This document shows, in pieces, positions 14,544 through 31,864 of a stretch of DNA of 61,740 bases. Positions within the stretch are counted from its first letter, which is position 1; every line of letters begins with the position of its first letter. This DNA is from Christensenellales bacterium. GTDB lineage: Bacteria; Bacillota; Clostridia; Christensenellales; CAG-917. The notes below the pieces were generated by a model. The model saw only the letters and a program-made list of their open reading frames with translations, did no database searches and had not been told where the DNA came from. The stretch is taken from assembly GCA_048394785.1 (NCBI GenBank), contig DBFJGL010000056.1:1-61740 (forward strand). Direction: 5' to 3'. The translations under genes and the position numbers were made by a program.

Positions 14544-14588
14544 TGGAGCTGATAACCGGACTTGAACCGGTGACCTCTTCCTTACCAA
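14544..14588 (-). pseudogene. orphan 3' half of a disrupted host tRNA-Thr(GGU): anticodon loop through CCA
   Basis: Minus strand reads TTGGTAA-GGAAG-AGGTC-ACCGG-TTCAAGT-CCGGT-TATCAGC-T-CCA. The 3' acceptor and anticodon-stem strands pair perfectly with the 5' half at 57382-57419. Confidence 0.85.
14580..14588. repeat. attL core (CCTTACCAA), direct repeat of 57380-57388
   Basis: This 9-bp string is the only sequence shared by the two junctions. It corresponds to the anticodon loop plus 2 nt of the severed tRNA. Confidence 0.7.
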
Positions 14589-14700
14589 TCTCGAACCCTA
14601 CTTTTTTCCTAAGATGTGCCCTATACGATTACAGACTGTCAAAACCACAATATATTGTGCTTTTGACGGTCTTTTTTGCTTATCAGACACAATGGAAAAA

Positions 14701-15018: not shown

Positions 15019-15048
15019 TTGACATTTTCTGCTTTTTTATGCTATAAT
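15019..15048 (+). promoter_or_regulatory. near-consensus sigma-A promoter for the cargo operon
   Basis: TTGACA (15019-15024), an 18-nt spacer ending in TGC (extended -10), then TATAAT (15043-15048). It lies 36 nt upstream of the XRE gene. Confidence 0.65.
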
Positions 15049-15083
15049 ATGCTTGAAAATGAAATGAACACAGCGAGGACTTT

Positions 15084-15332
15084 ATGATGACATTTGCGCA
15101 AAAGGTTAAATTCGTAAGAGCAAAAAAACAATTAAGTCAGGACGAGTTGGCTTCGGCAATCGGAGTATCCTACTCCACCGTCAGCCGCTGGGAGCGAGAA
15201 GACAGAACGCCGCAAATGAAGTCAATCGGTAAATTGATTGCTTATTGCGAAAAAAACGGGATTGACATTATCGGCGATGAATCGGGTGCTTTTGCAAGCA
15301 GCGAAAAATACGGAAACGGCTTGGGAGATTAA
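15084..15332 (+). CDS. XRE-family helix-turn-helix transcriptional regulator
   Basis: 82 aa. LSQDELASAIGVSYSTVSRWERED is a classic Cro/C1-type HTH. Confidence 0.85.
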   Translation: MMTFAQKVKFVRAKKQLSQDELASAIGVSYSTVSRWEREDRTPQMKSIGKLIAYCEKNGIDIIGDESGAFASSEKYGNGLGD

Positions 15333-15335
15333 ACT

Positions 15336-17702
15336 ATGCGAAAATTACGTTTCTATGCAATCTTGTGCATTGCCGCGGCGATGTTTTTTGCAACGGCGTT
15401 CATTCCCGTCAATCAGAGTTTCGCCGCCGAGGCAACTCAACCGAGTATCGTAACGACATCGGAAGGACTGTCTCTGGCGTTGTCGAAAGCCAAATCAGGC
15501 GAAACAATCTACGTCGGGGATATCGACTTTGAAGTCAAAGGAACCAACACCAATCCCATCGAGCGCAAAACGGTGATCACGGGCGTGAGAATCGTAAATG
15601 GCAAGTCGGACGGAACGAAAGCTGTATTTACGGGCGGCAGTTTTAATCTGATCGGCGACAACCGTTCGGGCATTACCACGGAGTTCGTTTTTGAGGGAAT
15701 CCGTTTTGACGGCGGCATTGATACGTCGGTTCTTACCCATTCCGACTGGGAACTTCCGACAAACAGTCAAGGCGAAACTCTTTTGGATCAGCCGTCGAAA
15801 GCGCAATACGCAATACGCATGGAAAGAAACGTCAAGGCGACTTTCCGAAACTGTGATTTTGAAAATTATATGTTTAATGCGGGCGGAGCAATCCGTGCCG
15901 ATTATTCCGACGGCTCCAACAGTCTGGAACTAAACCTATACGACTGCAATTTTGCAAAAAACGCGGCCTTTACCTGCGGCGGTGCTGTCGCCCTTTGGGG
16001 TGCCTACGGCACGGGCAACAACGTTTCCTTTCTTGCCGACGGCTGTCGGTTTGAGGGTAACTTTTGCGGTGGTGCTACTAAAATAACGGAAGACGGCGCT
16101 TCGAATTATATCCAAACGTCCTATGGCGGGGCGATATACTCCAAACACGTATCCGTTGAACTGCGCAATACCGTTTTAATCGGCAACACGGCCAATCACG
16201 AATATGCGAACGCGCCTGCCCTGTCGGGCAACTACGGCAAAACCGACGTAAGTTCGGGCGGCGGCATATACTGTTACTTTGCGCCGCTGACGATGAAAAA
16301 CTGCGTTGTGACGGAAAATAAGGCGTCTACCGGCGGCGGCATAAAGCTCAAACTGTCCTCGGCGGTTATCGACGGTTGCGTCGTTGCGAACAATCGCGCA
16401 CAAACTTTGGCGGAAAAGCCGAATTCCAAAAACGGTCTTAGCAGCGCTATGGGATTGGGCGGAGGAATTTATATCAATTACGACAACAGCGTGTATGCTA
16501 TAAAACTTATGAATACCAGCATATACGGCAATTATGCGCAGAACGCTTTGGGCGCAATAGGCGTACCTACTAACCCGAAAGAAAGGCTCGATTTGCGCTT
16601 CTTGTTTTGCACAGTGGAAAACAACACTTGCGAAACGGCACGGGAGGAGTATGAACACACCGATAATAACAACTGGTTATGGTACTGTCAGCCCGGTGAC
16701 TTCTGGGAACTTGACTGTGTAAAAAAGGTGGGTTGTGCGATTGCCGATGCGGAATACCCGAGGGAGCCGGTCGTACAAACTCCGTCCGAAGACAACGGTT
16801 ACAACAGCTTTTACGTTGCCGCCGTTTTTGATTCGACGGAGCCTAAGCACCTGTCTCCTACCGATTTTTCCGTGCCGACGGAATACGTGTCTACCGTTTG
16901 CGGCGGCGAATTTTCCCGTATCGAGGGTGCGTTTTACGTCGGCGACAATTACCGCGAATCCTTGCCTGTCGAACTGGACGGGAACGGAGTTGCCGTTGAA
17001 TACGACTTGACTTACGGCACAGCCGAATTGCCTGTTCCCGTGCGCAACGGATATATTTTCGAAGGCTGGGTAACGGAAAAGGGAGAAACCGTCGATCCCG
17101 ACCAAACGCTTTTTGCCTACGGCGAAACCCTTACGTTGTACGCAAAATGGACGGCGAGGCAGTTTCCCGTTCTCTTTATCGTGGGCGGAGCTGAGGAAAC
17201 GCGCACGCAAACCTACGACACGGCGTGGAATGTGCCGGATGCGCAAAAGAACGGTTACAAATTTTTAGGCTGGTACAATGCGGAAAGCGGCGGCGAGAAA
17301 GTCGATACGGCGTCCGCGTTTGCCTATGACGAAACGCTGACGCTTTACGCGCGATTCGAGAAGAAATCTCCGTTACTCGCGGTTGTGCTGTCGGTGAGCG
17401 GCGCGATAATCTTGATAGCAGGTAGCACTGTTGCCGTTGCATTGATTATGCGTCGCAAAAAAGCGGCGGTCGCAGCAGGAGTAACGCAAGCGCCTGCACC
17501 ACCTGACAAACCGACGCCGGATACAAGCGCGCTGTCCCCCAGAGAGCGGGAAGTATTGGATTTGCTGCTGTCCGGCAAGCGTCGGAGCGAGATAAGCGAA
17601 ATCCTCTATGTGGGAGAGGAAACGGTAAAATCCCACATTAAAAATATTTACGCGAAACTGGAAGTAAAAAGTATTCACGAGCTTTTTTCAAAGTTTAATT
17701 AA
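15336..17702 (+). CDS. single-pass membrane protein: signal peptide, extracellular PMP-like beta-helix, two Listeria-Bacteroides repeats, TM helix, cytoplasmic LuxR/GerE HTH
   Basis: - Signal peptide ends ...NQSFAAEA.
- Repeated GGAI/GGGIY motifs indicate a beta-helix.
- GYIFEGW...LTLYAKW and GYKFLGW...LTLYARF are Flg_new-type repeats.
- TM helix LLAVVLSVSGAIILIAGSTVAVALIM is followed by RRKK.
- C-terminus LSPREREVLDLLLSGKRRSEISEILYVGEETVKSHIKNIYAKLEV is a LuxR-type HTH. Confidence 0.8.
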   Translation: MRKLRFYAILCIAAAMFFATAFIPVNQSFAAEATQPSIVTTSEGLSLALSKAKSGETIYVGDIDFEVKGTNTNPIERKTVITGVRIVNGKSDGTKAVFTGGSFNLIGDNRSGITTEFVFEGIRFDGGIDTSVLTHSDWELPTNSQGETLLDQPSKAQYAIRMERNVKATFRNCDFENYMFNAGGAIRADYSDGSNSLELNLYDCNFAKNAAFTCGGAVALWGAYGTGNNVSFLADGCRFEGNFCGGATKITEDGASNYIQTSYGGAIYSKHVSVELRNTVLIGNTANHEYANAPALSGNYGKTDVSSGGGIYCYFAPLTMKNCVVTENKASTGGGIKLKLSSAVIDGCVVANNRAQTLAEKPNSKNGLSSAMGLGGGIYINYDNSVYAIKLMNTSIYGNYAQNALGAIGVPTNPKERLDLRFLFCTVENNTCETAREEYEHTDNNNWLWYCQPGDFWELDCVKKVGCAIADAEYPREPVVQTPSEDNGYNSFYVAAVFDSTEPKHLSPTDFSVPTEYVSTVCGGEFSRIEGAFYVGDNYRESLPVELDGNGVAVEYDLTYGTAELPVPVRNGYIFEGWVTEKGETVDPDQTLFAYGETLTLYAKWTARQFPVLFIVGGAEETRTQTYDTAWNVPDAQKNGYKFLGWYNAESGGEKVDTASAFAYDETLTLYARFEKKSPLLAVVLSVSGAIILIAGSTVAVALIMRRKKAAVAAGVTQAPAPPDKPTPDTSALSPREREVLDLLLSGKRRSEISEILYVGEETVKSHIKNIYAKLEVKSIHELFSKFN

Positions 17703-17728
17703 ACGATTTTCTTACATACAACAGTCTC

Positions 17729-17756
17729 AGCCCGACCGGCACGGTCGGGCTTTTAT
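17729..17756 (+). terminator. rho-independent terminator
   Basis: Stem AGCCCGACC (17729-17737) / GGTCGGGCT (17743-17751), followed by TTTT. Confidence 0.7.
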
Positions 17757-17919
17757 TATGCCTTGCGCCTAAAATAAAGATGTCTTGTTCAAAATCCCCC
17801 GAAATATCCCCCTGATGGGGGATGTACAAAAGCAAACCGTACCATTAAAATATAAATAACAAATGCAAGTATTCAGTCCAAAGTACAGTTGCAAAATAGA
17901 AACCAACCGGAGGTAAAAA

Positions 17920-19800
17920 ATGAAAGGAAAAATCAGACTGGTCGGCATATTGCTGCTTACCGTAATTCTCGCGGTAACACTTGCCGCCTGCAACGGCGGC
18001 AATGACGACAATGGCAACACTCCCAAAGCCCCTACGCAAAGCGATTGGTCGGCGGTGGGAATCGACGGCGGCTTTTCCGCCGAGGTTAAAGGCAATCTCG
18101 TCACTAATTTGGCGGTTGAAGGCGAAATTCAGATGAAGTGGACGGATTCGGACGAAACCAGCCTCGACAACACCATTGCTTGGTTGAAATCCAAGGGTTT
18201 TTCGTCCTACGGCGGCGCAACCGCGACAAAGGAGTCGTTGCAGGACGGCGCATTGCTATCATACACGGCGGAAAAATCGGTTTCCGCAGTCGCGCAATCG
18301 GCAAAAGCCGTTGCTTTCGCCGCCGCGGCAAGCGCGGGAAATACCGTCGTGGCGGAAACGCTTTACGTCGCGCGCGACGTTTCGCTTATGGGTATGAGCT
18401 ACAAGGCGGGCGAGCTGTATCTGTCAGTAGCTCCCGAAAATAGCGGAAGCACGCCTGCGCCCGGTCCGAGTACGGAATGGCCGGCGCAGACCATCGCTTC
18501 GATCATAGGCGACGGCGTACCCGTTTATACCGGCGCGGCGTCTTCTGTTACAACACAGTCTAACACGCTTGTTAAGCCCACCGTTACGGTCACGGTAGCG
18601 GGTGCAACCAACGCCGATTACGTCGCATACAGGACGGCGTTAACACAGTCGGGATTCAGCGACACGCCCGACGGGTTTGTCAAAACGAAAACCAACGGCG
18701 ACGTTATCACGGTAATTGTAACGGATATGACGACAAACGGCGGTATGATTTTGATAACCGTGACGCTGGAAAAGAACAGCGGAGCGCTTACAGAATATCC
18801 GTCCAACAGACTTACGGCGTTTAACGGCGCCAATCTCCCCGCGTATTCGGGTGGCACGAGTTTTGACTGCGAAGATATTCTGGCGACGTATTCCGCGGCA
18901 ATGAAAACGGGAATAGAGCAAGAAATTGCGAAATTGGAAGCCTTGGGCGCGAACCTTACCGCCGAACAGCGAACTCAGCTTGCGGAATATAAGGAAAAAC
19001 TTAAACTTATCGACAATATGCGTGCGTTTACGGTCACCGTCTACGGCACGACGGACGGCGAACGCAGCGCGTTTTGCGAAAGACTGACCGCAAACGAGTT
19101 TACCCTTAACGGCGGAACGTACGTCAAGGACTTTTCCAATCCGAATCAATATCACGCGCAGGTTGACGTAGGCGACGTAGAAAACGGAAAACTTTTACTT
19201 ACTCTTATCCGTATGCCGGCGGGGCTTTTGGACGACGAAGGCGGCGATCCCGTAAATCCGCCCGTAACGGACGAGTTGACCTTTGCGGATTTGCCGACGA
19301 ATATAAAAATAACTTTTGAGTATTTGGTCAACGGAACAAAGTTTACAGAAAGCACGGCTACTAAAATCGGTGATAATTGGCTGATAGAAAGCGCTTCGTA
19401 CGGTACTACAGTAAAAAGTTATCTTAAAAAGTCGGGCAACGTGTGGACGGAATACGCCGAGGCAAGCGGCGCGTGGACGGCGGGCAGCTCCTATACGGCG
19501 CTTTCCGACCACGACGTTTTGGACGTGCTGACGTTTATTTTTAATAACGACGTAACCGGCTTTACCAAAGGACAGCAAATAACCATTGCGGGGCAAGCTT
19601 GCGACGTCTATACGAAAACGAACGACAGCTTAGCCTCATACGGAATAACGACCGTCGATACCTTGTACGTAAACGCGGACGGCTTTGTTTTGTACAACGA
19701 CCATTCGAGCAATCAACAAGGACAAACCACAACACAAACCTATCAAATCACCTTGTGGGACACGACCGTTACGTCTTTCGGTGATATAACGCTGCCGTAA
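17920..19800 (+). CDS. lipoprotein of unknown function (626 aa)
   Basis: Signal peptide with lipobox LAAC-NGG. The C-terminal ~170 aa end in WDTTVTSFGDITLP and are paralogous to modules in the 20697-21890 product. Confidence 0.75.
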   Translation: MKGKIRLVGILLLTVILAVTLAACNGGNDDNGNTPKAPTQSDWSAVGIDGGFSAEVKGNLVTNLAVEGEIQMKWTDSDETSLDNTIAWLKSKGFSSYGGATATKESLQDGALLSYTAEKSVSAVAQSAKAVAFAAAASAGNTVVAETLYVARDVSLMGMSYKAGELYLSVAPENSGSTPAPGPSTEWPAQTIASIIGDGVPVYTGAASSVTTQSNTLVKPTVTVTVAGATNADYVAYRTALTQSGFSDTPDGFVKTKTNGDVITVIVTDMTTNGGMILITVTLEKNSGALTEYPSNRLTAFNGANLPAYSGGTSFDCEDILATYSAAMKTGIEQEIAKLEALGANLTAEQRTQLAEYKEKLKLIDNMRAFTVTVYGTTDGERSAFCERLTANEFTLNGGTYVKDFSNPNQYHAQVDVGDVENGKLLLTLIRMPAGLLDDEGGDPVNPPVTDELTFADLPTNIKITFEYLVNGTKFTESTATKIGDNWLIESASYGTTVKSYLKKSGNVWTEYAEASGAWTAGSSYTALSDHDVLDVLTFIFNNDVTGFTKGQQITIAGQACDVYTKTNDSLASYGITTVDTLYVNADGFVLYNDHSSNQQGQTTTQTYQITLWDTTVTSFGDITLP

Positions 19801-19814
19801 TCGAGGAGAAAATT

Positions 19815-20678
19815 ATGGGAATATTCAATAAAATCACCAAGGGTATCACGCGCGGAGTAGGAAACGCGGTGTCAAACGCAGTACAGCGAAAAACTACGGA
19901 AGCCCTGACGCCGCAGGTCGACAAACTGGCGGATAAAATCGTCAAGACAAATCCGCAATCCTCGACGAACGAAGGGCAAGCCGCGCAAAGCTCCGACCTT
20001 GCTGCGGCAACGGCGAGGCTCGCGGGCGCATACTCGGGCGCCGTGCAAAACTACGCAACCGAGGCGGCAAAGAATATCAAGGTCTGCCCCTCCTGCGGCA
20101 AGCCGACGAGCGCGGATAAAAAATTTTGTCCCGAGTGCGGCGCGGAAATGCCCCAAACCACGCTCGCGGACTGTGCGGTATGTCCCGCTTGCGGCAAGCA
20201 AAACGGCATAGGCGAAAAATTCTGCTCGGACTGCGGTACGAAGCTGCCCGCAGCAATCGAAGAAGATCGCCAAAGCGCGCAAGCCGACGAGAATACTATG
20301 GCGCGGTGGGACGAGTTTTTGTCCGCATATCCCAAATGGAATTGCGGCGGCAGCGGCTACAATCTCGAACGCTTCGACGGCGACCGCTATATGTTCGCCG
20401 CACGGTTTGCCGATTTCGACGCAGCAAAGCGGGCGGTAGAGCAATACCGCGCAAGTCTGCGGCAAAGCGGCTTTGCGCCCGCGGGGCAGTACCCGAGCGA
20501 GGAGCATCTTTACAAAAAGACGGACGGCGGTTGTTTTCACGTAGATACCGAGCATTGCTTCGAGGGCGATTCCGATTGCCCTACCGTCTATTTCAATACG
20601 GAAGAACCATACGGCGGCTTCGATTACAAAAAAGAAGAACCGAAAAAGAAAAAAGGCTTTTTCGATTTATTCGGTTAA
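19815..20678 (+). CDS. cytoplasmic double zinc-ribbon protein (287 aa)
   Basis: CPSCGK..x..FCPECGA and CPACGK..x..FCSDCGT form two consecutive zinc ribbons. No TM helix. The C-terminal domain is of unknown function. Confidence 0.7.
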   Translation: MGIFNKITKGITRGVGNAVSNAVQRKTTEALTPQVDKLADKIVKTNPQSSTNEGQAAQSSDLAAATARLAGAYSGAVQNYATEAAKNIKVCPSCGKPTSADKKFCPECGAEMPQTTLADCAVCPACGKQNGIGEKFCSDCGTKLPAAIEEDRQSAQADENTMARWDEFLSAYPKWNCGGSGYNLERFDGDRYMFAARFADFDAAKRAVEQYRASLRQSGFAPAGQYPSEEHLYKKTDGGCFHVDTEHCFEGDSDCPTVYFNTEEPYGGFDYKKEEPKKKKGFFDLFG

Positions 20679-20696
20679 TATAAAGGAGAAATTTCT

Positions 20697-21890
20697 ATGA
20701 AAAAGACGTTTATTATCATTTTAGCAGTGCTGACTATGTTTTCGATATGCTTACTTTCCGCTTGTGATTCGTCGGGCAACGAAAACGGAAACGGCGGCAG
20801 CGGCGGAGGCGGCGGGGGCGGCGGAGAAACGACTACCGGGTACACTCTCCCTACCAACGTAAAGGTCGTTTATGTCGATAACGATACAATCGGCTTCGAC
20901 GAAACTGTTACGGCTTACAAAATCGGGGATACATACGCGGCGTCCACGGTTACCGCCAACGGTACTGAGAGCGTATATTTCAAAAAGCAGGGAGATACTT
21001 GGAAATATTATAAAAACTCCGGTTGGGGCTGGGAGATCGAAGAAGAATCCTGCAACCGCAAGTCCGCCGAAATACTTACCTTCGGCTATATAGTTATAGA
21101 CTCATTGAAGTCATCGGCGGAAAAAGCGGGCGCCGAACAGATTGCGGGTATATCTACCGAAAAATATTCCTCTCAATACTCCACTTACGAGGAGCATTGG
21201 TGGGTAGCCGACGGGCTTATTATTAAGTATCACTACCAATCCAACGCCGTAACGCCCCATATTCAATTACGGGAAATCAGGTCATGGGATACCTCGGTAA
21301 CGGCAATGGGCAATGATGCGGACGTTCCCGGACTTCTTGCGGGAGAAGAAGGCACCCCGCCTACAAAGGACGCGGTATTGCCTCAGAACGTAAAAGCCGA
21401 ATGTACCACCGTTTCGGGCTCTACCACAACGAATAAACTTACCGTAAAAATCGGCAACGATTATTATTACAAAACAACAAGAACGTATGTAGACAGCACA
21501 ACGCAGGAAACGAATACCAGCGTAGACGAACGTTTTTACCGTTACAATTCCGCAGAGGAAAATTGGACGTCTTATTGGAAGAGATCGGACGGGAGCTGGG
21601 CGAGTTCGGAAGATCCTATCGAATATAAAGAGGACATTGAAAGCAATGCGTTCAATTCGTATCTAACCGACGGTTACGAAGGCGAGTTTGTAGAAACCGT
21701 TACGATTGCCGACGTGAGCGTACGGCATTTCAAAAAGGAGTCCCAAATGGACTTCGGAAGGGGCGATTATTGGGTAACCGACGGCGGATTGGTGCTAAAA
21801 TACGAATCGGGTTCGGGAACGTACGTATACACGTATTCGGTTTGGGACACTTCGGTCACAAGTTTTGCCGGTATCAACCTGCCGGAATAA
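20697..21890 (+). CDS. lipoprotein with two tandem copies of the WDTSVT-terminated module (397 aa)
   Basis: Lipobox LSAC-DSS, then a Gly-rich linker. The two modules end in SWDTSVTAMG and VWDTSVTSFAGINLPE. Confidence 0.75.
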   Translation: MKKTFIIILAVLTMFSICLLSACDSSGNENGNGGSGGGGGGGGETTTGYTLPTNVKVVYVDNDTIGFDETVTAYKIGDTYAASTVTANGTESVYFKKQGDTWKYYKNSGWGWEIEEESCNRKSAEILTFGYIVIDSLKSSAEKAGAEQIAGISTEKYSSQYSTYEEHWWVADGLIIKYHYQSNAVTPHIQLREIRSWDTSVTAMGNDADVPGLLAGEEGTPPTKDAVLPQNVKAECTTVSGSTTTNKLTVKIGNDYYYKTTRTYVDSTTQETNTSVDERFYRYNSAEENWTSYWKRSDGSWASSEDPIEYKEDIESNAFNSYLTDGYEGEFVETVTIADVSVRHFKKESQMDFGRGDYWVTDGGLVLKYESGSGTYVYTYSVWDTSVTSFAGINLPE

Positions 21891-21901
21891 GGAGATAACA
21901 A

Positions 21902-22606
21902 ATGAAAAACAAAATTTTATCAAATTTATCGTACGTGTTCTGCGCAGGACTGGGGTTATTGAATTTTATTCTGCTGGCAATCCCCTACGTCGCGTCCTTT
22001 TATAAATACGACTACGGCGAATGGGGCGGCAAAGGCTCGAACTCGGCGGGCATTTCCGGCTACAAGGTTATGAGCCTTTGGGAGGGCGGCTTCGGCGGCA
22101 TTATGAGCGCAATCTTCCAGATTTTTATTCTGATTTTAGGAATTGCACTGCTTGCCTACGGCGTTATGGGACTCTTAAAGGCATTCGGCGTGTTTGAAAA
22201 GTTCCCCGACAAACTCGGGAAATTCGAAACGAAGAAGCTCGGAGAATACGGACTGTTCGCTTATGCGGGACTGAACGTACTGCTTTTGATATTCCTGATT
22301 ATTTTGTGCGCAACCAATACGCGTAGCGAAAGCGAAATGGGTATTTCCGGTTCCGCCGGAATACGGTTTAGCGCAGGAATTTTTATTACTCTGATTTTTG
22401 CCGTAGGCTCCGTCGTCGCAATGAAATTTCTGCAAAAGAAGTTTCCCGCAAACGCGGATAACGGGCCGCAAATTTCTTATCTATGCGAAAATTGCGGCAA
22501 AAAGGCAAAAAAGACGGTCAAATTCTGTCCCGAATGCGGAGGAAAGGTCGTCGAAAAACAAACGGACTTACAGGAGGATACTACTCCGCCCGATAGTGAA
22601 AATTAA
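21902..22606 (+). CDS. four-TM membrane protein with C-terminal zinc ribbon (234 aa)
   Basis: Four hydrophobic helices, followed by CENCGKK..x..FCPECGG. Confidence 0.7.
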   Translation: MKNKILSNLSYVFCAGLGLLNFILLAIPYVASFYKYDYGEWGGKGSNSAGISGYKVMSLWEGGFGGIMSAIFQIFILILGIALLAYGVMGLLKAFGVFEKFPDKLGKFETKKLGEYGLFAYAGLNVLLLIFLIILCATNTRSESEMGISGSAGIRFSAGIFITLIFAVGSVVAMKFLQKKFPANADNGPQISYLCENCGKKAKKTVKFCPECGGKVVEKQTDLQEDTTPPDSEN

Positions 22607-22623
22607 AACGGAGGGAAATGAAA

Positions 22624-24042
22624 ATGAAATCGGTTTTTTCAAAAACAAAGGCGACGGCAATCGTATTGGCTCTGCTACTTGCTTTTTCCGTCTGCGCGTT
22701 TGCCGCGTGCAACCCAAGCGGTAACGAAGGCAGCGGAAACGGTAACGGAAATGGTAACGGGGGCGGAAACGGCGGCACGACTACGGACAAAACCGTCGTA
22801 CAGTTGATCGACGAGGCGCAGGTAATTTTCAACAAGGCGGGCAAAGCCCTTTCGAACGCGACGACGGGACTTGCGGGTAATTTGACCGAAAGCCAGCCAC
22901 AAGTGCAAACGCTGAGCGCAAAGTCAGCGCCGCGCATCGCTTTGCTGTCCGACGAAAAACCGAGCGACGGCGACGATATTCCTTCGGCACCCACCTTAGA
23001 CGACCTTGAAGGCTACGTACTGCTACGCAACCTGCAAGTAGCCATTAAATCGGTTTTCGGCGAAGTAGAGTACTACACGGCGGAAGATTTCGGCGGAAAC
23101 GAAAACGCACCGGGCATAGGCAAAGTCAAAAGCGAAGGGACGTACACACGGCTGGCACGCACCTTCAAAGAATTAGACGCTTTGCTGTCTGAAATGGGAG
23201 ATGGCGCAAAAGTGACGATTGAAAACAAGGACGTTCCCACGGCGCCGAGTTACGCCTTTAAGCGGGACGGAAATTACGTGGTTTCCGCTCCGGTACTACG
23301 TTGGCAAATCAACAACGAAGTTGACTCCGAAGGCAAACCGATTCTTTCCGAAGAAGAACAAATAGAGGTGGTCGCGCGCGGAGAAACGACGTATATAGCG
23401 CAGGGCAATACCCTCAACGTCACGGGTCCGAAGTACGTTCAAGAGGGCGACAAACAGTTGCCCGACAAACTTAAAGACGCGGGCGACGGCATCGACCCGC
23501 TCTATCGGGCAGACAACCTCAGCACTTTCCGCTCCTTTACGGTAAACGACAACGTCGCTTCGTCCCCTGCGCTGGAAGTCGTTTCTGCCGACGACGACGT
23601 GTACATGCGCTTTTACGGCATTGATATGACGTCTCTCCAAATGGGCTCTGAGGTTGATACCAACGAATTTTATCTCGACTTAAGCGTAAGATGGTTTGAA
23701 TACACGGAAAGAATGACTTTCGAAAGCCCCCAAGGACTGGAAAACAACTGGAATTTCCCCAACGAAGTTTACGGCGTGGCAAAATTCGCCCCCGACGGCA
23801 CCAGCGGTATGGTAAAACTTTTCCGCAATTACAGTCACGACGCGGGCGGGCCGAAGGACGCGGCGGGCAATCCGCAGTACGAACGCGGTACCTATCCTTT
23901 GCCCGAAAAATGGCTTACCTCGTTCAACGCCGAAACGGCTCTCGATATTTCCGGCTTGGAGGGCAACTGGCTGCAACACAAGCAGCGGTATCTGTGCACC
24001 TTCAACTTCACGGGGCTGCCTGCCGCGGAAGAAAAGAAATAA
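22624..24042 (+). CDS. lipoprotein of unknown function (472 aa)
   Basis: Lipobox FAAC-NPSG followed by a GNGNGNG linker. ATG 22624 is 8 nt from GGAGGG. The track start at 22618 is only 2 nt from the RBS. Confidence 0.7.
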   Translation: MKSVFSKTKATAIVLALLLAFSVCAFAACNPSGNEGSGNGNGNGNGGGNGGTTTDKTVVQLIDEAQVIFNKAGKALSNATTGLAGNLTESQPQVQTLSAKSAPRIALLSDEKPSDGDDIPSAPTLDDLEGYVLLRNLQVAIKSVFGEVEYYTAEDFGGNENAPGIGKVKSEGTYTRLARTFKELDALLSEMGDGAKVTIENKDVPTAPSYAFKRDGNYVVSAPVLRWQINNEVDSEGKPILSEEEQIEVVARGETTYIAQGNTLNVTGPKYVQEGDKQLPDKLKDAGDGIDPLYRADNLSTFRSFTVNDNVASSPALEVVSADDDVYMRFYGIDMTSLQMGSEVDTNEFYLDLSVRWFEYTERMTFESPQGLENNWNFPNEVYGVAKFAPDGTSGMVKLFRNYSHDAGGPKDAAGNPQYERGTYPLPEKWLTSFNAETALDISGLEGNWLQHKQRYLCTFNFTGLPAAEEKK

Positions 24043-24056
24043 GGCAAAAGCCGTAA

Positions 24057-24083
24057 GCGCCGCGTCTTTTTCGCGGCGTTTTC
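24057..24083 (+). terminator. rho-independent terminator
   Basis: Stem CGCCGCG (24058-24064) / CGCGGCG (24072-24078), followed by TTTT. Confidence 0.6.
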
Positions 24084-24212
24084 GGCATTTGGGGAGGACA
24101 AATTCTATGACGAAAAAATTACATAAAACGCTATTGCTTTTAAGACGAAATATAGCGTATTCCTTAGGCGGAGCAATCCCCAAGACAAATCACATAAGTG
24201 AGGTAAAGTAAG

Positions 24213-24869
24213 ATGAGTAAAACCAAAAAAAGTACGTTGTTTGTATTACTGCTCGCACTAATGCTTGCGGCGATTGCAGCGGTAAGCGTATCGGCGCTGC
24301 CCGCACAAACGGCGCACGCGGCAATCAATCAGTACGGAGTCATCGAGGCGGGCACGACGACCTTGAACGGTAACTTAAATCAGGGAAAGACGCTTGCTTG
24401 TAGTGTAACCGCGACGCTTAACGGAAACGGCTATACGATTTCACGCAATCTTGCAACAGATTATCCCGTAATTACCGTACGTAGCGGCGCCGTTTTGACC
24501 ATCAACAACGCAACCATCGACGGAGGATATACCTTTACGCAGAGCGGCGACTATTATATAAATACTTCCACCGCCTACCTTTCAAGCGCTCCTCTTATTT
24601 TGGTCAAGGACGGCGGAAGGCTTATTTTGAACAACTGCACCGTGCAAAACAACGTATCGTCGGAAAACGGCGGAGGGATTTATATCGAAAAGGACGGTGC
24701 GGTGGATATGTTCGATTCCACCGTGCAAAAGTGTCGGGTAACCGGCTCTTCTTCCGGCGGGGGTATTTACAATTTGGGTATCCTCGCCATGGTGGGCGGA
24801 AACGTTCGATACAACCAAGCCGGCGGCGCCGGCATTGTATATAAACAAAAAAGAAGGCTATACCGATAA
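24213..24869 (+). CDS. N-terminal fragment (signal peptide plus first beta-helix turns) of the giant surface protein
   Basis: The signal peptide ends ...AQTAHAAI. Beta-helix motifs NGGGIYIE and SGGGIYN are present. The frame ends 35 nt after the next ORF opens in the +1 frame. Confidence 0.6.
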   Translation: MSKTKKSTLFVLLLALMLAAIAAVSVSALPAQTAHAAINQYGVIEAGTTTLNGNLNQGKTLACSVTATLNGNGYTISRNLATDYPVITVRSGAVLTINNATIDGGYTFTQSGDYYINTSTAYLSSAPLILVKDGGRLILNNCTVQNNVSSENGGGIYIEKDGAVDMFDSTVQKCRVTGSSSGGGIYNLGILAMVGGNVRYNQAGGAGIVYKQKRRLYR

Positions 24870-27800
24870 AACCGTCAACGTAACGCGCAATCTCGCCGAT
24901 AGCGGTGCGGGACTGGCAATAATAGACGGCGACGCATGGATTTACGGCACTCAGTCGGCGCCTGTCAAAGTAGAGTCCAACGTGGCGTGTCAAGGGTACA
25001 ATTACATTGCTAATCCGGACGGCACCGGAGGCGGAGTATACGTCGGATTATACGCAAAAGCGCACATATATAACTTTGTTAGCATTCAATACAATTCCGC
25101 CGGCAACGGAGGCGGTATTTACACGGTCGGCAGTACTTGGCTCGGACGGGAAGGCACGACGTCCACCCGCATGGTGGTTGCCTACAACAGCGCGACAAAT
25201 TACGGCGGAGGCATTTGGTCGGGTGGCGGCGCCGGTACTTGGCTGGGAAAAATTACTGTTTTTGAAAATACCGCGCAATACGGCGGCGGAGCGTATATCC
25301 ACAGCGAAACGACTGCGGAAAAACCCTTTGCCGTTACGTCCACGTCGCTCGTAAGCTCTAACACAGCGAGCACGGCGGGCGGTGGAATTTACGCCGACGG
25401 CGTACTGACCTTGGAATACAAGCCGTATATCGGCCTTAACAAGGTAGGCTCGGCAAACAGCAACGTCTATTTGTCGGTAACAGACGGTAAAAACAGCAAA
25501 ATAAATATTGTCCAAAAACAGACGGACAACAAAGATTCGGGTACGCAGACGGTGCCTATCGGATTGAGTTCCGATATGACTTCCGCAACGAAAATCGTCA
25601 CGACAAACTATACGGTTACGAATTCGCTTGCTCTGTCGGACGTGTTTACAACCGACAATACCGATTATTACGGGCTGTCGCTTTCGGGCGGCGAAGTGCA
25701 AATGAACCGCTACGTCAAGGTCACATATTCGCCTTACAGTTGCACGGGAAGCGCAAAAACCGTCAAGGTCGGCTACAATCAGGCCACCCTCGTTTACAGC
25801 GCCGCACAAGCCGGTTTTTCCAAGACGGGTTACAGCCTTTCGGGGTGGAGCCTTGTAGCCGGCAATTCGGTTGCAACCTACGGCTTGACGCACCAGCCCG
25901 CATTTAAGGACGATATCACCCTGTATCCCGTTTGGTCGGTAAACAGATACACGCTTACCTATGACGGCAACGGCAACACCGGCGGAGGTATGAGTACAAG
26001 CGAGTTTACTTACGGTCAGACGGCCAATCTTCGCTTGAACGGCTTTACGAAGACGGGCTACAATTTTTTAGGCTGGTCGTTCGACCAAAATGCGACGACT
26101 CCGACCTATTTAGACGGAGCCTCTTTTACCTATAATTACACCTCGGACAAAACGCTGTACGCCGTATGGAAACCATTATATTCTTACACCGTAAAGCACT
26201 ATTTGCAAAACATAGCGGACGATGAGTATACCATTGACGTTACGGAAACCCTTTCCGGCACGGGTACTACGCAGGCGGTAGCGAAAGACTACGCCGGTTT
26301 TACCGCGCAAGCGTTCAGTCAAGCGACCATTGCCGCAGACGGCAGTACGGTGGTGGAAATTTTCTACAATCGCAACAGTTACACCCTTACCTTCAACGCC
26401 AAGGGCGGCAATATTTCGAGCGATACGCTTACCGCGAAATACGGTTCGCCGATTACCCTTCCCGTTGCAACGAGAAACGCCTATACCTTTGTCGGTTGGA
26501 GCGAAACGGACGGCGGCAGCACGGCGGTAAATTACACGACTATGCCGGCGGTAAACAAAACCCTTTATGCTGTTTGGAAAAACAGGGCGCTTGTAAGCAT
26601 TTCCGTTCCCGCCGAGTATCTAACCCAAACCTATTTCGTAAACGACGCTTTGAAAGCGTTTCAAATTAACTTAGTTTACGACAACGGCGATACGGAAAGC
26701 GTTGACGTAACTTCCGCTATGGTTTCGGGCTTTTCCACGGCAGCCGTGGCGTCAAACCAAACGGCGACAATATCTTACGGCGGCAAAACCGCAACCTTTA
26801 CTTATACCGTAACGCAGGGCTACGCCTACAAGGTTCTTCATCATTTTGAAGATATTGACGGCGAAGGGTACGGAACGGATACCGCTACCGTAAGCGAAAC
26901 TCTTTACGGCACGGGAACTACGCAGGCGGTGGCAAAAAAATACGACGGCTATACCGCACCCACTACCATAGAGCAGAAGGAGATTAACGCGGACGGAACT
27001 ACGCAAGTCGATATTTATTACACCCGAAATTCTTACACCGTCACCTTCGACGCGGGCGGCGGTGAATTTCCCGCAAACGCAACGACGACGCTTTCCGCAA
27101 AATACGGCGCAAACGTTTCGGTAGCGGGCATTACCGCGCCCGCAAAACTCGGCTTTGTGTTTACCGGTTGGAACACTTCGGCGGAAGGCACCGGCACGCC
27201 GGTTGACAAAAGCGGAAATTATACCGTGACTGCGGAAACAAACCAAACCCTTTACGCCGTTTATGAAGCCAAAGCGGTGACGAGACTGACCGGCAAGTCA
27301 GACAGCAAAAATGAGTGGTACGTGGGCGAGGCAATGGGCGAATATTACTTTACTGCGGAATACAACGACGGAACGACGGAAGATATATCCGTCGTTGCGA
27401 CAGGCGTAGAAGTTAAAAATTTCGACACTTCCACCGCTACCGGTACGGGAGAAAAAAGAACGGCGACCATTAAATACGGCGGTCAGCAGTACAGCTTCAA
27501 CTACACCGTAGTTGTCAGAACGTACAGCGTGACCTACTACGCAAACGGCGCGTCGGGTGAACTGCCCATAAATACGCCGATGCCAAGCGGTATGAGTTTA
27601 ACTGTCCAAGACGGCGATTCCCTTACCAAAACGGGCTATACCTTCACAGGCTGGCTGTACAGCGGCGACGGCAACGTGTACGAGTCGAACGATACGATAA
27701 CGATGCCCGCCCAAGACGTCACCTTTACCGCACAGTGGAGTTTGAAGTCGCCCGACCTTGATTTTGGCAATATTCTCGGAGGCGCCTCTCCGGATTTCAC

Positions 27801-30800
27801 CTATGACTTCTCATACGACGGCGAGGCTCATCAGGTAACGGTAACCGCCACACACGAATTGGTAGGGCAAGTTGATTATACCTACGCTTGGTACCGTTTG
27901 AAGGCGGGCGGGACTCCGATTCCCTCTATGTATCGTACGGAAGATATGCTAAATAGCAACTGCGATCAGGTAGGCGAAACGGATACCTATGGCTTTACCG
28001 AGATTGCCCACAGCGGAACCCATTACTGTCTGGTCAAGGCGACGTACGGCAGCGATACGAGTATCGCCGTGGTACAGATTTACGTGACCGTTTCCAAAGG
28101 CGAGCAAGCGGAGTTAACCTTCTCGCAAACCGAAATAACCTACGCCGGCGAGAATATCTATTTAAGCCTATACGTTTCGGGCGGTTCGGGCGACGGAGCG
28201 ATTACCTTCCCTTATTGCACCTTTGGCAATGACGTTTCCGGCAGTTTGAATTCTGCAACCGGTGTAATCAGCAATATAACAAAGGTAGGCGGAACTATAA
28301 AAGTTACGGTACGAAAAGCCGCAAGTAGCGACGGAAACTACAAGGCGACGGAAAAAGAGTTTACGCTCACCATAAATAAGGGCGTTCAAAATATTGTAAT
28401 AGGCGATATTCAAAGCCCCACGTTCGGCAATGCTTACGACCTGACGGCTACGGGCAACGTCGGCACGGTAGCCTTTGAAACTATCACGGGAGGCACGGCT
28501 ACGGGCAAAATAGAAAACGGAAAACTTTCCGTCAGCGACCGTGGAACGGACGGTACTATTACCGTAAAAGCCACCGCCGCCGAAACCGACCTATGGGCGC
28601 AAGGCACGGCGCAAAAAACCTTTACCTTTGCCAAGGCTTCCTACGACTCCGCACCCGAATTTTCGGGCAACATTCCGGCGCAAACCTATACCCTATGCGT
28701 AGGGCGCGCGCTTTCGGAAATAACGCTTCCTACTTATTGGTCGTGGCAGGACGGGCAAAGTTTGCCCAACCAAACCGGAACTTACGACCGGATGGCTATT
28801 TTCACCCCCGCAAGCCCCGACAACTACGAGGGAACCGAAGCGACTATTTCAATAACCGTCGCCGCCCATAACTCCGAAGGCGCGGCAACGAGCAATAACG
28901 ACGGCACGCACTCTCACACTTGCTCGGTTTGTTTTGAGATAATCACCGAAAACTGCACCTTTGGCGACTGGGTGACTACCGTTCAGCCGGGCGTAAATCA
29001 AGAAGGCAGTAAATACCGCGATTGTTCCGTGTGCGGTTACCGCGACACGCAAGTCATACCCGCAACGCATACCTGCGTGTACGATGCCGAGTTCACGGTA
29101 GATATTGCGCCTACCTGCACGACGGCGGGTGAAAAATCCCGACATTGCACGACGGCAGGTTGCGATGAGCGCGTCGGTATTACCGTAATCCCCGCCCTCG
29201 GTCACTCTTGGGGCGATTGGATTGTAACCACCCCCGCCACTTGCACAACGGACGGCGTAGAAACGAGGACTTGCGCCCACGATAGTAGTCATACCGAAAC
29301 GAGGGCTATTACTGCAATCGGTCACTCTTGGGGCGATTGGACGGTCAAAAAGGCTCCAACCGCACAAACGACGGGCGAACTTGAAAGAATTTGCGCCAAC
29401 GATTCCTCGCATACCGATAGTTTTGTATTGCCCGCGCTGAACAATAGCGACTACGTTTACAGCGTTGTGACCGCACCCGGCTGCGAAACTACGGGAACAG
29501 GCAAATACTCTTACACGAAAGATAATAAAACCTTCGATTTTACCGTTACTCTTGCTGTTGCGGGGCACACCTTAACGCCTCATGTGGCAAAAGCGGCGAC
29601 CTGCACCGAAGACGGAAATACCGAATATTGGACTTGCTCCGTTTGCGGAAAATATTTCAGCAATAGTGCGGGCACGAACGAAACGACGTTGAACGCCGTC
29701 AAAATTTCGGCAATAGGTCACTCTTGGGGAGAATGGATTGTGACCACCCCCGCTACTTGTACGGAAAACGGCGTAGAAACGAGAACTTGCACCCACGACA
29801 GTAATCATACGGAAACGAGGACTATTACTGCCAAAGGTCACGAGTGGGGCGGTTGGACTTCTAACAACAACGGCACGCACACCCACGCTTGCATGTACGA
29901 CGGCAGTCACACCGAAACGGAAAACTGCACATATGAGGATAGCGTAGTTGCCCCAACCTGTACGACAAAGGGCTATACGCGCCACACCTGCACCGTTTGC
30001 GGTTATCATTACGACGACACGCCTACGGACGAAATTGCTCATACCTTAACGGCACACGCCGCCGTTTCGCCCACGCATATTACGGCGGGCAATATCGCTT
30101 ATTGGACTTGTTCTGTTTGTAAAAAGTATTTTTCGGACGTAAACGGCGAAACGGAAATCAGCCTGAACGACACCGTACTGCAGGCTACCGGACACAGCCA
30201 TTCTTCCGAATGGAAAAGCGACGAGAGCGGACATTGGCACGAGTGCAGTTGCGGAGATAAGGCAGACGTGTCGGCGCATACCCCCGGGGCGGCGGCAACC
30301 GAAACCACGCCACAAACCTGTACGACGTGCGGATACGTAATTACGCCCGCTACCGGACACGCAACGCATACGCCCGATACTTCCAAGTGGCATTCCGACG
30401 GCACGAACCATTGGCACAAGTGCACCGGCTGTGAGGAAAAACTTGATGTTGCCCAACATAGCGGAGGCACGGCGGACTGCGAGCACAAGGCGGTTTGCGA
30501 AATTTGCGGCGCCGAATACGGCGAGCTTGCCGCGCACAGCTACGGCGAATGGACTCATTACAACGACACGCAGCACAAGCGGGTTTGCTCGGTTAATGCA
30601 GACCACGTCGAATACGTCGACCACGCTTGGAACGACGGAGTAATTACCACCGCGCCTACCCATACCGCGGCGGGCGTAAAAACCTATACCTGCGCGGATT
30701 GCGGACACACCAAAGCGGAAAGCATCCCCGCTACTGCCGAGCACTTTTACAATTTGGAAATTGCGGAGGCAAGGTTTTTGAAATCCGCCGCCACTTGTAC

Positions 30801-31542
30801 GCAAAAAGCGGTTTATTACAAGAGCTGCGCCTGCGGCGAACGCGGAACGGCAACCTTCGAGTACGGCGGTTATGCTGCGCACACATTGACCGCGCACGAG
30901 GCCGTAGCAGCCACCTGCACCCAAAACGGCAATATCGCTTATTGGAGTTGCTCGGTGTGTAATAAGTATTTCAGCGATAGCACGGGCGAAACCGAAATAA
31001 CGCAGGCGCAAACGGTAACAGCGGCGGGGCATAATTATGTGTTTACAAGGACGGTTGCGCCTAATCTCGAAGCGCAGACGGACGGTTACGACCTGTGGAC
31101 GTGCACCCGCGATGAAAGCCATACCGAACGGCGCAATATCGTGGAATGGGAAACATTGATTGCCGATAAGGTGACCGTCATGGTGTCGGGCGGCACGATA
31201 CAAGGCCAAAGCGGCTCGTCCATAATCGTCAATAAAAACGGAAACGTCACGGTTGTGGCAGACGAAATCGAAGGCAAAACCTTTGTCGGTTGGCGAAACG
31301 CAAACGGAGATATTGTCAGCGAAAACGCTACCTACACTTTCAGAGCAAGCGCGGATATGACGCTTACCGCCGTGTACGAGGACGTCACGTCCAAACCTAA
31401 GGGACTTTCAGGCGGCGCAATCGCGGGCATAGCGGTCGGAGGCGTGGCTATTGCAGGATTTGGTGGATTTGCAATATTCTGGTTTGCGGTCAAGAAAAAA
31501 TCTTTTGCCGATTTACTTGCAGCGGTCAAACGCAAAAAATAA
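24835..31542 (+). CDS. giant surface protein body (2235 aa): PMP-like beta-helix, Listeria-Bacteroides repeats, Ig-like domains, Cys/His-rich modules, C-terminal TM anchor
   Basis: No signal peptide of its own; the track start is a TTG. Domain evidence:
- GGGVY/GGGIY/GGGIW/GGGAY beta-helix repeats
- at least 6 repeats of the GY.F.GW...LYAVW type
- about 740 aa of CxxC/His modules
- TM helix IAGIAVGGVAIAGFGGFAIFWFAV followed by KKKSF. Confidence 0.75.
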   Translation: MYINKKEGYTDKTVNVTRNLADSGAGLAIIDGDAWIYGTQSAPVKVESNVACQGYNYIANPDGTGGGVYVGLYAKAHIYNFVSIQYNSAGNGGGIYTVGSTWLGREGTTSTRMVVAYNSATNYGGGIWSGGGAGTWLGKITVFENTAQYGGGAYIHSETTAEKPFAVTSTSLVSSNTASTAGGGIYADGVLTLEYKPYIGLNKVGSANSNVYLSVTDGKNSKINIVQKQTDNKDSGTQTVPIGLSSDMTSATKIVTTNYTVTNSLALSDVFTTDNTDYYGLSLSGGEVQMNRYVKVTYSPYSCTGSAKTVKVGYNQATLVYSAAQAGFSKTGYSLSGWSLVAGNSVATYGLTHQPAFKDDITLYPVWSVNRYTLTYDGNGNTGGGMSTSEFTYGQTANLRLNGFTKTGYNFLGWSFDQNATTPTYLDGASFTYNYTSDKTLYAVWKPLYSYTVKHYLQNIADDEYTIDVTETLSGTGTTQAVAKDYAGFTAQAFSQATIAADGSTVVEIFYNRNSYTLTFNAKGGNISSDTLTAKYGSPITLPVATRNAYTFVGWSETDGGSTAVNYTTMPAVNKTLYAVWKNRALVSISVPAEYLTQTYFVNDALKAFQINLVYDNGDTESVDVTSAMVSGFSTAAVASNQTATISYGGKTATFTYTVTQGYAYKVLHHFEDIDGEGYGTDTATVSETLYGTGTTQAVAKKYDGYTAPTTIEQKEINADGTTQVDIYYTRNSYTVTFDAGGGEFPANATTTLSAKYGANVSVAGITAPAKLGFVFTGWNTSAEGTGTPVDKSGNYTVTAETNQTLYAVYEAKAVTRLTGKSDSKNEWYVGEAMGEYYFTAEYNDGTTEDISVVATGVEVKNFDTSTATGTGEKRTATIKYGGQQYSFNYTVVVRTYSVTYYANGASGELPINTPMPSGMSLTVQDGDSLTKTGYTFTGWLYSGDGNVYESNDTITMPAQDVTFTAQWSLKSPDLDFGNILGGASPDFTYDFSYDGEAHQVTVTATHELVGQVDYTYAWYRLKAGGTPIPSMYRTEDMLNSNCDQVGETDTYGFTEIAHSGTHYCLVKATYGSDTSIAVVQIYVTVSKGEQAELTFSQTEITYAGENIYLSLYVSGGSGDGAITFPYCTFGNDVSGSLNSATGVISNITKVGGTIKVTVRKAASSDGNYKATEKEFTLTINKGVQNIVIGDIQSPTFGNAYDLTATGNVGTVAFETITGGTATGKIENGKLSVSDRGTDGTITVKATAAETDLWAQGTAQKTFTFAKASYDSAPEFSGNIPAQTYTLCVGRALSEITLPTYWSWQDGQSLPNQTGTYDRMAIFTPASPDNYEGTEATISITVAAHNSEGAATSNNDGTHSHTCSVCFEIITENCTFGDWVTTVQPGVNQEGSKYRDCSVCGYRDTQVIPATHTCVYDAEFTVDIAPTCTTAGEKSRHCTTAGCDERVGITVIPALGHSWGDWIVTTPATCTTDGVETRTCAHDSSHTETRAITAIGHSWGDWTVKKAPTAQTTGELERICANDSSHTDSFVLPALNNSDYVYSVVTAPGCETTGTGKYSYTKDNKTFDFTVTLAVAGHTLTPHVAKAATCTEDGNTEYWTCSVCGKYFSNSAGTNETTLNAVKISAIGHSWGEWIVTTPATCTENGVETRTCTHDSNHTETRTITAKGHEWGGWTSNNNGTHTHACMYDGSHTETENCTYEDSVVAPTCTTKGYTRHTCTVCGYHYDDTPTDEIAHTLTAHAAVSPTHITAGNIAYWTCSVCKKYFSDVNGETEISLNDTVLQATGHSHSSEWKSDESGHWHECSCGDKADVSAHTPGAAATETTPQTCTTCGYVITPATGHATHTPDTSKWHSDGTNHWHKCTGCEEKLDVAQHSGGTADCEHKAVCEICGAEYGELAAHSYGEWTHYNDTQHKRVCSVNADHVEYVDHAWNDGVITTAPTHTAAGVKTYTCADCGHTKAESIPATAEHFYNLEIAEARFLKSAATCTQKAVYYKSCACGERGTATFEYGGYAAHTLTAHEAVAATCTQNGNIAYWSCSVCNKYFSDSTGETEITQAQTVTAAGHNYVFTRTVAPNLEAQTDGYDLWTCTRDESHTERRNIVEWETLIADKVTVMVSGGTIQGQSGSSIIVNKNGNVTVVADEIEGKTFVGWRNANGDIVSENATYTFRASADMTLTAVYEDVTSKPKGLSGGAIAGIAVGGVAIAGFGGFAIFWFAVKKKSFADLLAAVKRKK

Positions 31543-31668
31543 AATTTGGGTTTTCTCGCCACTCTCTATCGGTTCGGCGCACATTTTGAACAAACGATTA
31601 CGGTCATCACGCATTGCTGAAAAACTTGAACGATAAGAGTCGGACAGCTTAAATATTGAGGTTAAAAT

Positions 31669-31848: not shown

Positions 31849-31864
31849 AACACCTAAGTATGCG

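Follow-up and report, generated by a model that had tools for sequence, protein, structure and literature searches.

BguR is built from a signal peptide, a sensor composed of a beta-propeller and a Y_Y_Y domain, a transmembrane (TM) segment, a linker and a GerE domain; SusR is the only regulator named as comparable, and both occur in Bacteroidota, where they control glycan utilisation (bioRxiv 10.64898/2026.01.10.698779). Here we analyse a stretch of 61,740 nucleotides (the window) from a Christensenellales bacterium (assembly GCA_048394785.1, contig DBFJGL010000056.1), in which a regulator with the same order of parts belongs to a block of nine open reading frames (ORFs; 15019-31542, + strand, 16,524 bp) on an ICE (integrative and conjugative element; ~14547-57318, 42,772 bp) integrated at tRNA-Thr. 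Judged by its gene content and distribution, we take the block to be a conserved, undescribed gene module of uncultured gut Clostridia, carried here on a conjugative element. Human and ruminant guts harbour Oscillospiraceae and related uncultured Clostridia in abundance, and very little has been learnt about the surface biology of these bacteria. The module offers an experimental handle in the form of a candidate operator and an expressible sensor domain, and a SusR/BguR design with a beta-helix sensor in Gram-positive bacteria would extend that signalling principle. An initial annotation of the window had proposed an organised, undescribed surface system, which is supported in its core, the overall interpretation being supported in part; the nine genes, the promoter, three lipoboxes, the zinc ribbons and a split surface protein of ~2,400 amino acids (aa) were all found where it had placed them.

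Our best explanation of the block, to which we give a probability of about 0.5, is a sensor-controlled envelope module of three parts: a regulator, an effector and an accessory surface protein. A regulator unit with its own promoter and terminator encodes an XRE protein and a membrane-spanning LuxR/GerE protein, whose beta-helix/Flg_new ectodomain would perceive a cue from outside the cell, for which a glycan or some other polymer of the cell surface is the most plausible candidate. The membrane-tethered cytoplasmic helix-turn-helix (HTH) domain of the LuxR protein would bind an ATCCCCC palindrome standing in place of the -35 box ahead of lipoprotein 1, and this binding would switch on an effector unit made up of lipoproteins 1-3, a double-zinc-ribbon (DZR) protein and a 4-TM zinc-ribbon protein. 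Together the effectors would form or remodel an envelope-associated assembly, with LolA/LprG-like domains outside the membrane and zinc ribbons on its cytoplasmic face, and the giant beta-helix/Flg_new/Cys-rich protein would be a variable accessory, adhesin-like partner, inactivated in the window by a 35-bp deletion. More tentatively, one can picture a signal-inducible envelope system, often on mobile elements, in which zinc-ribbon proteins and LolA/LprG-like lipoproteins act across the membrane, either in handling a lipid-linked surface molecule or in making a coat that alters phage, conjugation-partner or host recognition, switched by the first Gram-positive counterpart of SusR and BguR. The features of the block are listed below; lipoboxes, TM segments and CxxC motifs come from direct reading and a hydropathy script.

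15019..15048, +, consensus sigma-70 promoter of the regulator unit (TTGACA-18-TGcTATAAT, 12/12, extended -10)
15084..15332, +, XRE-family HTH protein, 82 aa (HTH_3, E 6e-11)
15336..17702, +, transmembrane LuxR regulator, 788 aa (signal peptide, beta-helix, two Flg_new, TM segment, GerE)
17729..17751, +, intrinsic terminator hairpin after the LuxR gene (10 bp, 8 GC, then TTTTATTAT; -17 kcal/mol)
17794..17823, +, candidate LuxR operator (ATCCCCC heptamer, two direct copies and one inverted)
17806-17823, palindrome ATCCCCCTGATGGGGGAT (sole occurrence in the window, against a chance expectation of 0.07)
17823..17851, +, weak promoter-like site, putatively serving the lipoprotein/zinc-ribbon unit (TGTACA-17-TAAAAT, 9/12)
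17920..19800, +, lipoprotein 1, 626 aa (lipobox LAAC, Cys24)
19815..20678, +, cytoplasmic DZR protein, 287 aa (DZR, E 9e-14)
20697..21890, +, lipoprotein 2, 397 aa (lipobox LSAC, Cys23)
21902..22606, +, 4-TM zinc-ribbon protein, 234 aa (by hydropathy; cytoplasmic C-terminal CxxC...CxxC)
22618..24042, +, lipoprotein 3, 474 aa (lipobox FAAC, Cys31)
24058..24078, +, terminator-like hairpin after lipoprotein 3 (7 GC-rich pairs, then TTTTCGG)
24213..24869, +, 5' fragment of the surface gene (signal peptide and start of the beta-helix; out of frame after 24822)
24822..24823, +, site of the 35-bp deletion (between GCGGC microrepeats; frameshift)
24823..31542, +, 3' part of the surface gene (ORF 24835-31542; no signal peptide)

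The regulator compared with SusR and BguR

The N-terminal hydrophobic segment of the LuxR protein ends in SFA/AE, as in a signal peptide, and the sensor is predicted to be exported. A single TM segment (~676-703) is followed by RRKK, a linker of ~28 aa and a GerE/LuxR HTH domain at 732-784 (E 1e-15), nearest to those of GerE, VraR, DesR and NarL. The ectodomain consists of a parallel beta-helix and two Flg_new repeats, its homologues also match Beta_helix and Chlam_PMP, and no HisKA, HATPase_c or receiver (REC) domain was found in the protein with Pfam and NCBIfam. Homology between this ectodomain and the surface protein of the block was considered and rejected, the alignment being limited to the Flg_new repeats. 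In architecture only, the protein can be classed as a transmembrane one-component regulator of the SusR/BguR type. With SusR of Bacteroides thetaiotaomicron and BguR of marine Bacteroidota it shares the order of parts, the lack of phosphorelay domains and an encoding gene that stands beside the genes presumably controlled. It differs from them in its sensor, a parallel beta-helix with two Flg_new repeats that is not homologous to theirs, sequence homology being limited to the HTH; in its pairing with a conserved XRE protein; and in the products of the adjoining genes, where lipoproteins and zinc-ribbon proteins are found instead of SusC/D and carbohydrate-active enzymes (CAZymes). Because the host is Gram-positive, the sensor would lie at the cell surface rather than in the periplasm.

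That regulators of the same architecture control glycan utilisation suggests another reading, in which the block serves to sense and bind glycans, as the Gram-positive analogue of a polysaccharide utilisation locus; its sensor would then detect a polysaccharide, and its lipoproteins would be surface glycan-binding proteins. The beta-helix is, as general knowledge, a typical carbohydrate-binding fold, and two related modules (L089 and L092; L numbers denote the loci and contigs compared with the window) pair an alternative GerE regulator with a sugar-type substrate-binding protein (SBP) lipoprotein. However, no CAZyme, transporter or sugar-metabolism gene occurs in any module examined, and a conserved core of cytoplasmic and membrane zinc-ribbon proteins has no place in a utilisation locus, so that we consider a glycan locus quite unlikely.

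Recurrence of the module in uncultured gut Clostridia

The proposal of a sensor-controlled envelope module was compared with the neighbourhoods of related regulators. A scan of species-representative genomes for the LuxR protein gave ~27 full-length or near-full-length loci, all of them in metagenome-assembled genomes (MAGs) of uncultured Eubacteriales or Clostridia from animal and human guts; full-length relatives are 32-37% identical. The relatives with named records belong to Oscillospiraceae and uncultured Eubacteriales. When the ORFs around these loci were clustered and the neighbourhoods compared, LuxR orthologues were found to be followed by the same kinds of genes (L007, L008, L012, L039/L040, L091 and the type B loci). 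Type A loci encode the XRE and LuxR proteins, a 107-aa protein with four CxxC motifs and orthologues of lipoprotein 1 and of the 4-TM zinc-ribbon protein (55-65% identical), sometimes together with a Big_2 lipoprotein of ~1200 aa. Type B loci begin with LuxR, a 115-aa Cys4 protein, a DZR orthologue (47-48% identical) and a 5-TM protein with a C-terminal ribbon, and continue with two lipoproteins (one of them a lipoprotein-1 orthologue), a protein with a double ribbon and two TM segments, and a protein with a ribbon and a DUF4870 membrane domain. In the co-conserved loci the DZR protein (47-57% identical) and the 4-TM zinc-ribbon protein (55-65%) both exceed the regulator in conservation. In addition, in three further DZR lineages a GerE regulator is followed, in this order, by DZR, one to five lipoproteins and ribbon-membrane proteins, the regulator being either a beta-helix LuxR protein with XRE or a 2-TM GerE protein with an SBP lipoprotein, and one of these three loci lies in a mobilisable element. 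Twelve type B loci (L014, L017-L021, L025, L031-L033, L036, L041, L044) share up to 15 kb at 97-99% DNA identity although each belongs to the representative MAG of a separate species. They are probably mobile, and the pattern suggests that one mobile element has either spread horizontally in recent times or been mis-binned.

The initial annotation had allowed that the genes might not be co-conserved in other genomes, or that the proteins might match well-characterised, unrelated families. Instead, ~10 lineages of uncultured Clostridia keep the kinds of genes, and no block protein matched a characterised family in Pfam, NCBIfam, PADLOC, or PDB fold and profile searches. The alternation of lipoproteins with zinc-ribbon proteins, judged from the window to be organised rather than random, recurs beside orthologous membrane LuxR proteins in distant genomes. 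As had been noted from the sequence, there is no recognisable enzyme among the block proteins: neither Pfam nor NCBIfam assigned any of them to an enzyme family. A full-text literature search found no paper matching the module and nothing relevant on DUF6591. A chance accumulation of unrelated hypothetical genes as ICE cargo, with no joint function, would fit the dispensable or variable lipoprotein 3 and surface protein and the loss of the small Cys4 gene from the window; but ~10 lineages, at 32-57% protein identity, retain both the order and the kinds of genes, and the genes from lipoprotein 1 to lipoprotein 3 are tightly spaced at 11-18 nt. The co-conservation largely refutes this reading, which we regard as highly improbable.

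The description of the block as ICE cargo holds in part. A search with the ICE regulator (31990-32322) gave 15 contigs, and the same cargo lies upstream of it in all 10 matches listed. The module is not ICE-specific, however, and relatives of it are found in chromosomal islands and other mobile elements too: L092/L093 carry a relaxase and serine recombinases, the L089 module has housekeeping genes around it on a contig of 776 kb, and in the surroundings of the L007, L012, L089 and L091 modules no transfer genes were seen. In L094 and L095, whose LuxR proteins are 87-89% identical to that of the window, the stretch homologous to the window has its start at 14993, which is 26 nt ahead of the -35 box, and not at the att site, and the L095 module is flanked on its left side by housekeeping genes and tRNA-Asn. 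This start of homology and the adjoining tRNA-Asn argue that the module moves as a cassette of its own.

The same data bear on the possibility that the block is a conjugation accessory under ICE control, with the giant protein as a mating adhesin of the aggregation-substance kind and the lipoproteins serving surface or entry exclusion. The constant association with the ICE backbone regulator in the ten listed contigs, the position between the left attachment site (attL) and the transfer genes, and the occurrence of related modules on mobile DNA (the relaxase and recombinases of L092/L093; the near-identity of type B loci across species) would all agree with it. Yet orthologous modules stand where no transfer genes were seen, the L094/L095 homology begins at the promoter, housekeeping genes and tRNA-Asn stand to the left of the L095 module, and the adhesin is broken in four of nine variants while the ICE persists. 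Moreover, the block proteins have neither an LPXTG anchor nor a PrgB-, PrgA- or TraT-type domain, and a separate surface protein of the ICE, 1459 aa long, is encoded within the transfer operon. We therefore think a conjugation accessory unlikely, and return to the sensor-controlled envelope module.

Transcription units and effector proteins

The consensus promoter that had been recognised ahead of the block was confirmed; with its extended -10 it is the sole 12/12 match in a 20-kb scan, and it is kept in L094 and L095. A gap of 3 nt separates the stop codon of the XRE gene from the LuxR start codon, and the XRE protein is 57-66% identical in loci where LuxR is only 35-37% identical. The view that all nine genes form one operon from this promoter is probably not correct: given the hairpins at 17729-17751 and 24058-24078, three transcription units are likely (XRE-LuxR; lipoprotein 1 to lipoprotein 3; the surface gene), with read-through possible. 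A hairpin with a T-run stands directly 3' of the LuxR gene in seven divergent loci as well (L007, L009, L012/L006, L017, L040, L091). A search for riboswitches or leader RNAs in the intergenic regions gave 0 Rfam matches at E<=1 over 13500-32500.

HTH domains of the NarL/GerE type bind heptamer inverted repeats, and the NarL operator consists of TACYYMT heptamers in a 7-2-7 arrangement. Three of the five ATCCCCC copies of the window cluster at 17794-17823, where two of them form the palindrome, with a 4-nt spacer between the half-sites. The palindrome ends 22 nt before the TAAAAT box, and the weak promoter-like site starts at its last base, a placement ahead of lipoprotein 1 that would suit an activator substituting for the -35 contact. 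The array is kept in L002, L003, L094 and L095. In the other subfamilies the palindromes are likewise C-rich but differ in their half-sites (TACCCG, ACCCT, TACCTACC), and they stand 19-25 nt ahead of a -10 box. The window LuxR protein thus resembles the NarL/GerE regulators in its HTH and in a candidate operator that combines a palindrome of C-rich heptamers with a direct copy, and differs from them in having no receiver domain, in the half-site ATCCCCC and in the 4-nt spacer. In type B loci (L017:4731-4765 and others) the hairpin after LuxR is itself built of C-rich half-sites (GTACCTACCGC...GCGGTAGGTAC) and stands 19-20 nt before a TATAAT box; this composition and position suggest that the sequence may be terminator and operator at once.

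All three proteins annotated as lipoproteins have their lipobox cysteine (Cys24, Cys23 and Cys31). Orthologues of lipoprotein 1 were found in L008, L012, L039, L040 and the type B loci. Its AlphaFold2 model reaches a confidence score (pLDDT) of 80-90 for residues 458-626 only and is unreliable in the N-terminal two-thirds, where pLDDT is <50 for 309 residues. The confident part is a domain of ~170 aa, for which a half-barrel of 11 strands and a single helix is predicted, and Foldseek searches with it returned LprG, LprF and LolA first, and also VioE and EPDR1 (E 5e-5 to 9e-4, TM-score ~0.35). A BFVD fold search with lipoprotein 1 gave unnamed viral proteins only. Lipoprotein 2 comprises two tandem copies of the same C-terminal domain (motif WDTSVTSF..LP; BLASTP E 7e-9 and 3e-5) and has only 7 relatives among 5.8 billion proteins. 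On the fold search, with its low TM-score, this repeated lipoprotein domain is predicted to resemble LolA/LprG. The predicted half-barrel and its location on a lipoprotein recall LprG and GerS within the LolA/LprG/LppX and GerS group; there is, in contrast, no sequence similarity, the TM-score is again that low value, and neither a partner transporter (as in LprG-Rv1410) nor an amidase (as with GerS) is present. Lipoprotein 3 is a near-orphan with 11 representatives among 1.84 billion proteins; no similarity between it and lipoprotein 1 was found. It is not present in L094, and is thus dispensable.

The DZR protein is the best-conserved effector gene product of the module. Its family comprises 928 clusters (threshold E<=1e-5), of which at least 120 are full-length, with 48-57% identity over the full length, and a model built from 43 sequences has a mean pLDDT of 80, with >90 in the C-terminal domain. 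A PDB sequence-profile search with DZR matched generic ribbons only, and a metagenome scan with the DZR profile likewise gave generic zinc-ribbon matches only and no usable loci. A relation between the DZR C-terminal domain and the alpha/beta modules of lipoprotein 1, which share the motif YR..L.QSGF, was dismissed at an hhalign probability of 0.8%. The 4-TM protein is 55-65% identical in L007, L012 and L040; its own ribbon scores under the curated Pfam cut-off, and its orthologues have clear ribbons. TcaA-type membrane proteins of Firmicutes likewise fuse PF13240/PF12773 ribbons to TM segments, and there is a weak NCBIfam TcaA match; this match is far under the cut-off, however, and the architectures in the window are different, namely four TM segments with a C-terminal ribbon and a soluble DZR protein with a novel C-terminal domain.

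Several observations weigh against a sensor-controlled envelope module. The twelve type B loci, being 97-99% identical, count as one lineage. A small Cys4 gene, retained by the closest relatives (in L094 as a 100-aa gene), is missing from the window. One distant DZR gene, on a viral contig (L096), stands alone, and DZR is thus not strictly tied to the module. The conservation of the heptamer array among sister elements could just reflect their ~90% relatedness. The LolA/LprG match, at a Foldseek probability of 1.0, comes with a root-mean-square deviation of ~8 A besides its TM-score of ~0.35 and with a model from a 7-sequence alignment; nor does it prove lipid binding, since GerS of C. difficile, likewise LolA-like, activates an amidase instead and shows that such a fold in Clostridia does not necessarily stand for lipid carriage. 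Finally, the DZR C-terminal domain has no structural analogue in PDB at E<0.04.

The surface-protein gene and the surroundings of the block

The ~2400-aa surface protein had been described as present in two ORFs. Both ORFs are present, and the gene is broken by the 35-bp deletion, as defined by alignment with the intact gene of L002 (2554 aa); the same lesion occurs in contigs L185 and L193 from two other samples. The 3' part encodes a beta-helix/POMP repeat, four Flg_new repeats, a Big_3 domain, a Cys-rich region (44 of 50 cysteines after residue 1300) and a C-terminal TM anchor, the terminus running from the TM segment into KKKSF...KRKK. Flg_new, Big_3 and POMP repeats are the only matches in Pfam and NCBIfam, where no LPXTG anchor and no PrgB-type adhesin domain were found. 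Like PrgB/aggregation substance and the internalin-type Flg_new proteins, it is a repeat protein of very large size that is exported, contains Ig-like as well as Flg_new (InlB B-repeat) domains and is encoded on a conjugative element; unlike them, it has a C-terminal TM anchor in place of LPXTG, no PrgB adhesin domain and no leucine-rich repeats, and its gene lies outside the transfer operon and is often inactivated.

The gene is intact in L002, L186, L187, L192 and L094 (2434-2554 aa). Including the deletion in the window, it is broken in four independent ways among nine variants: by a TAC>TAG nonsense mutation in L188, by loss of a single T outside any homopolymer run in L189 and L190, and in L003 by replacement with IS1595 and an aminoglycoside nucleotidyltransferase gene. 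Phase variation was considered and rejected; none of the lesions is of the slippage type, which argues for recurrent loss. The surface protein can accordingly be classed, from these alleles, as a variable add-on that is a pseudogene in the window. Its destruction in several independent ways beside intact neighbours points to strong, fluctuating selection on exposed proteins of mobile elements. In L003 (13887-15442) the surface gene is cut after ~116 codons and followed by an IS1595-family transposase gene and a 164-aa gene of the aminoglycoside nucleotidyltransferase type (PF10706); with this gene in place of the surface gene, a resistance gene has landed inside the cargo.

Between the window and L002, lipoprotein 3 (67%) and the surface protein are ~63-67% identical, whereas the other genes are 95-100% identical. 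The two genes are mosaic relative to L002, with no detectable DNA similarity at 23121-23749, 26169-26793 and 27739-28097 and surroundings that are 87-99% identical, a pattern that looks like recombinational cassette exchange. This hypervariability would suit an anti-phage or superinfection-exclusion module in which lipoproteins and surface proteins mask or alter receptors, like Ltp-type lipoproteins of prophages, as would the association with mobile elements and variable islands and the recurrent loss of a surface protein that could itself be a phage receptor. Against it, a known defence system was sought with PADLOC and only generic HTH domains were matched; the 2.9 million viral contigs searched contain a single, solitary full-length DZR relative, a plasmid search gave no match, and nothing links the block proteins to known exclusion proteins. 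An anti-phage role is therefore very unlikely in our view; the giant protein remains best placed as the accessory partner of a sensor-controlled envelope module. Its Cys-rich repeat (window 28800-31000) measures ~40 aa and follows the pattern H-x-W..W.V....C...G...R.C. The same repeat occurs in L004 (3804-4274, - strand) as a stand-alone 156-aa lipoprotein adjoining a lipoprotein-2 relative, and may be an undescribed extracellular Cys-repeat domain.

The borders of the element are as follows.

14547..14592, -, attL, left end of the ICE (46-bp direct copy of the tRNA-Thr 3' end, 3 mismatches)
57243-57318, tRNA-Thr, the source of attL, aligned with 14547-14592

L002 and L003 are homologous to the window from 14538 onward. 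The element has all the hallmarks of an ICE: att repeats at the tRNA, a tyrosine integrase adjoining tRNA-Thr and, inside, a MobL relaxase, a coupling protein (T4CP) and a VirB4-like ATPase. The block, which lies between attL and the transfer genes, makes up 38.6% of it (16,524 / 42,772 bp), close to the ~40 percent estimated before. SpoIVA, ComEC and DUF711 on the left flank and a serine dehydratase on the right mark the flanks, by gene content, as the chromosome of a spore-forming Clostridium.

Just outside the ICE, the window encodes at 13109-13609 (- strand) another membrane zinc-ribbon protein, a chromosomal product of 166 aa that has two TM segments in its N-terminal part, a CxxC...CxxC ribbon in its C-terminal part and, except for the ribbon, no sequence relation to the block proteins. 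Between the surface gene and the ICE HTH regulator, a 59-aa ORF with two CxxC pairs (31669-31848), a small zinc ribbon, is kept at the same place in L194. The transfer operon contains, directly after the coupling protein, the 1459-aa protein (37607-41986), which has only a weak BiPBP_C match and counterparts of 1429-1620 aa in sister elements; it would be a likelier candidate for the mating adhesin of the ICE than the cargo surface protein. Furthermore, the ICE carries two orphan-looking DNA methyltransferases (51272-52021, N6/N4 type; 53381-54487, C-5 type) and, at 52487-53368, a protein with an NrS-1 polymerase-like primase domain.

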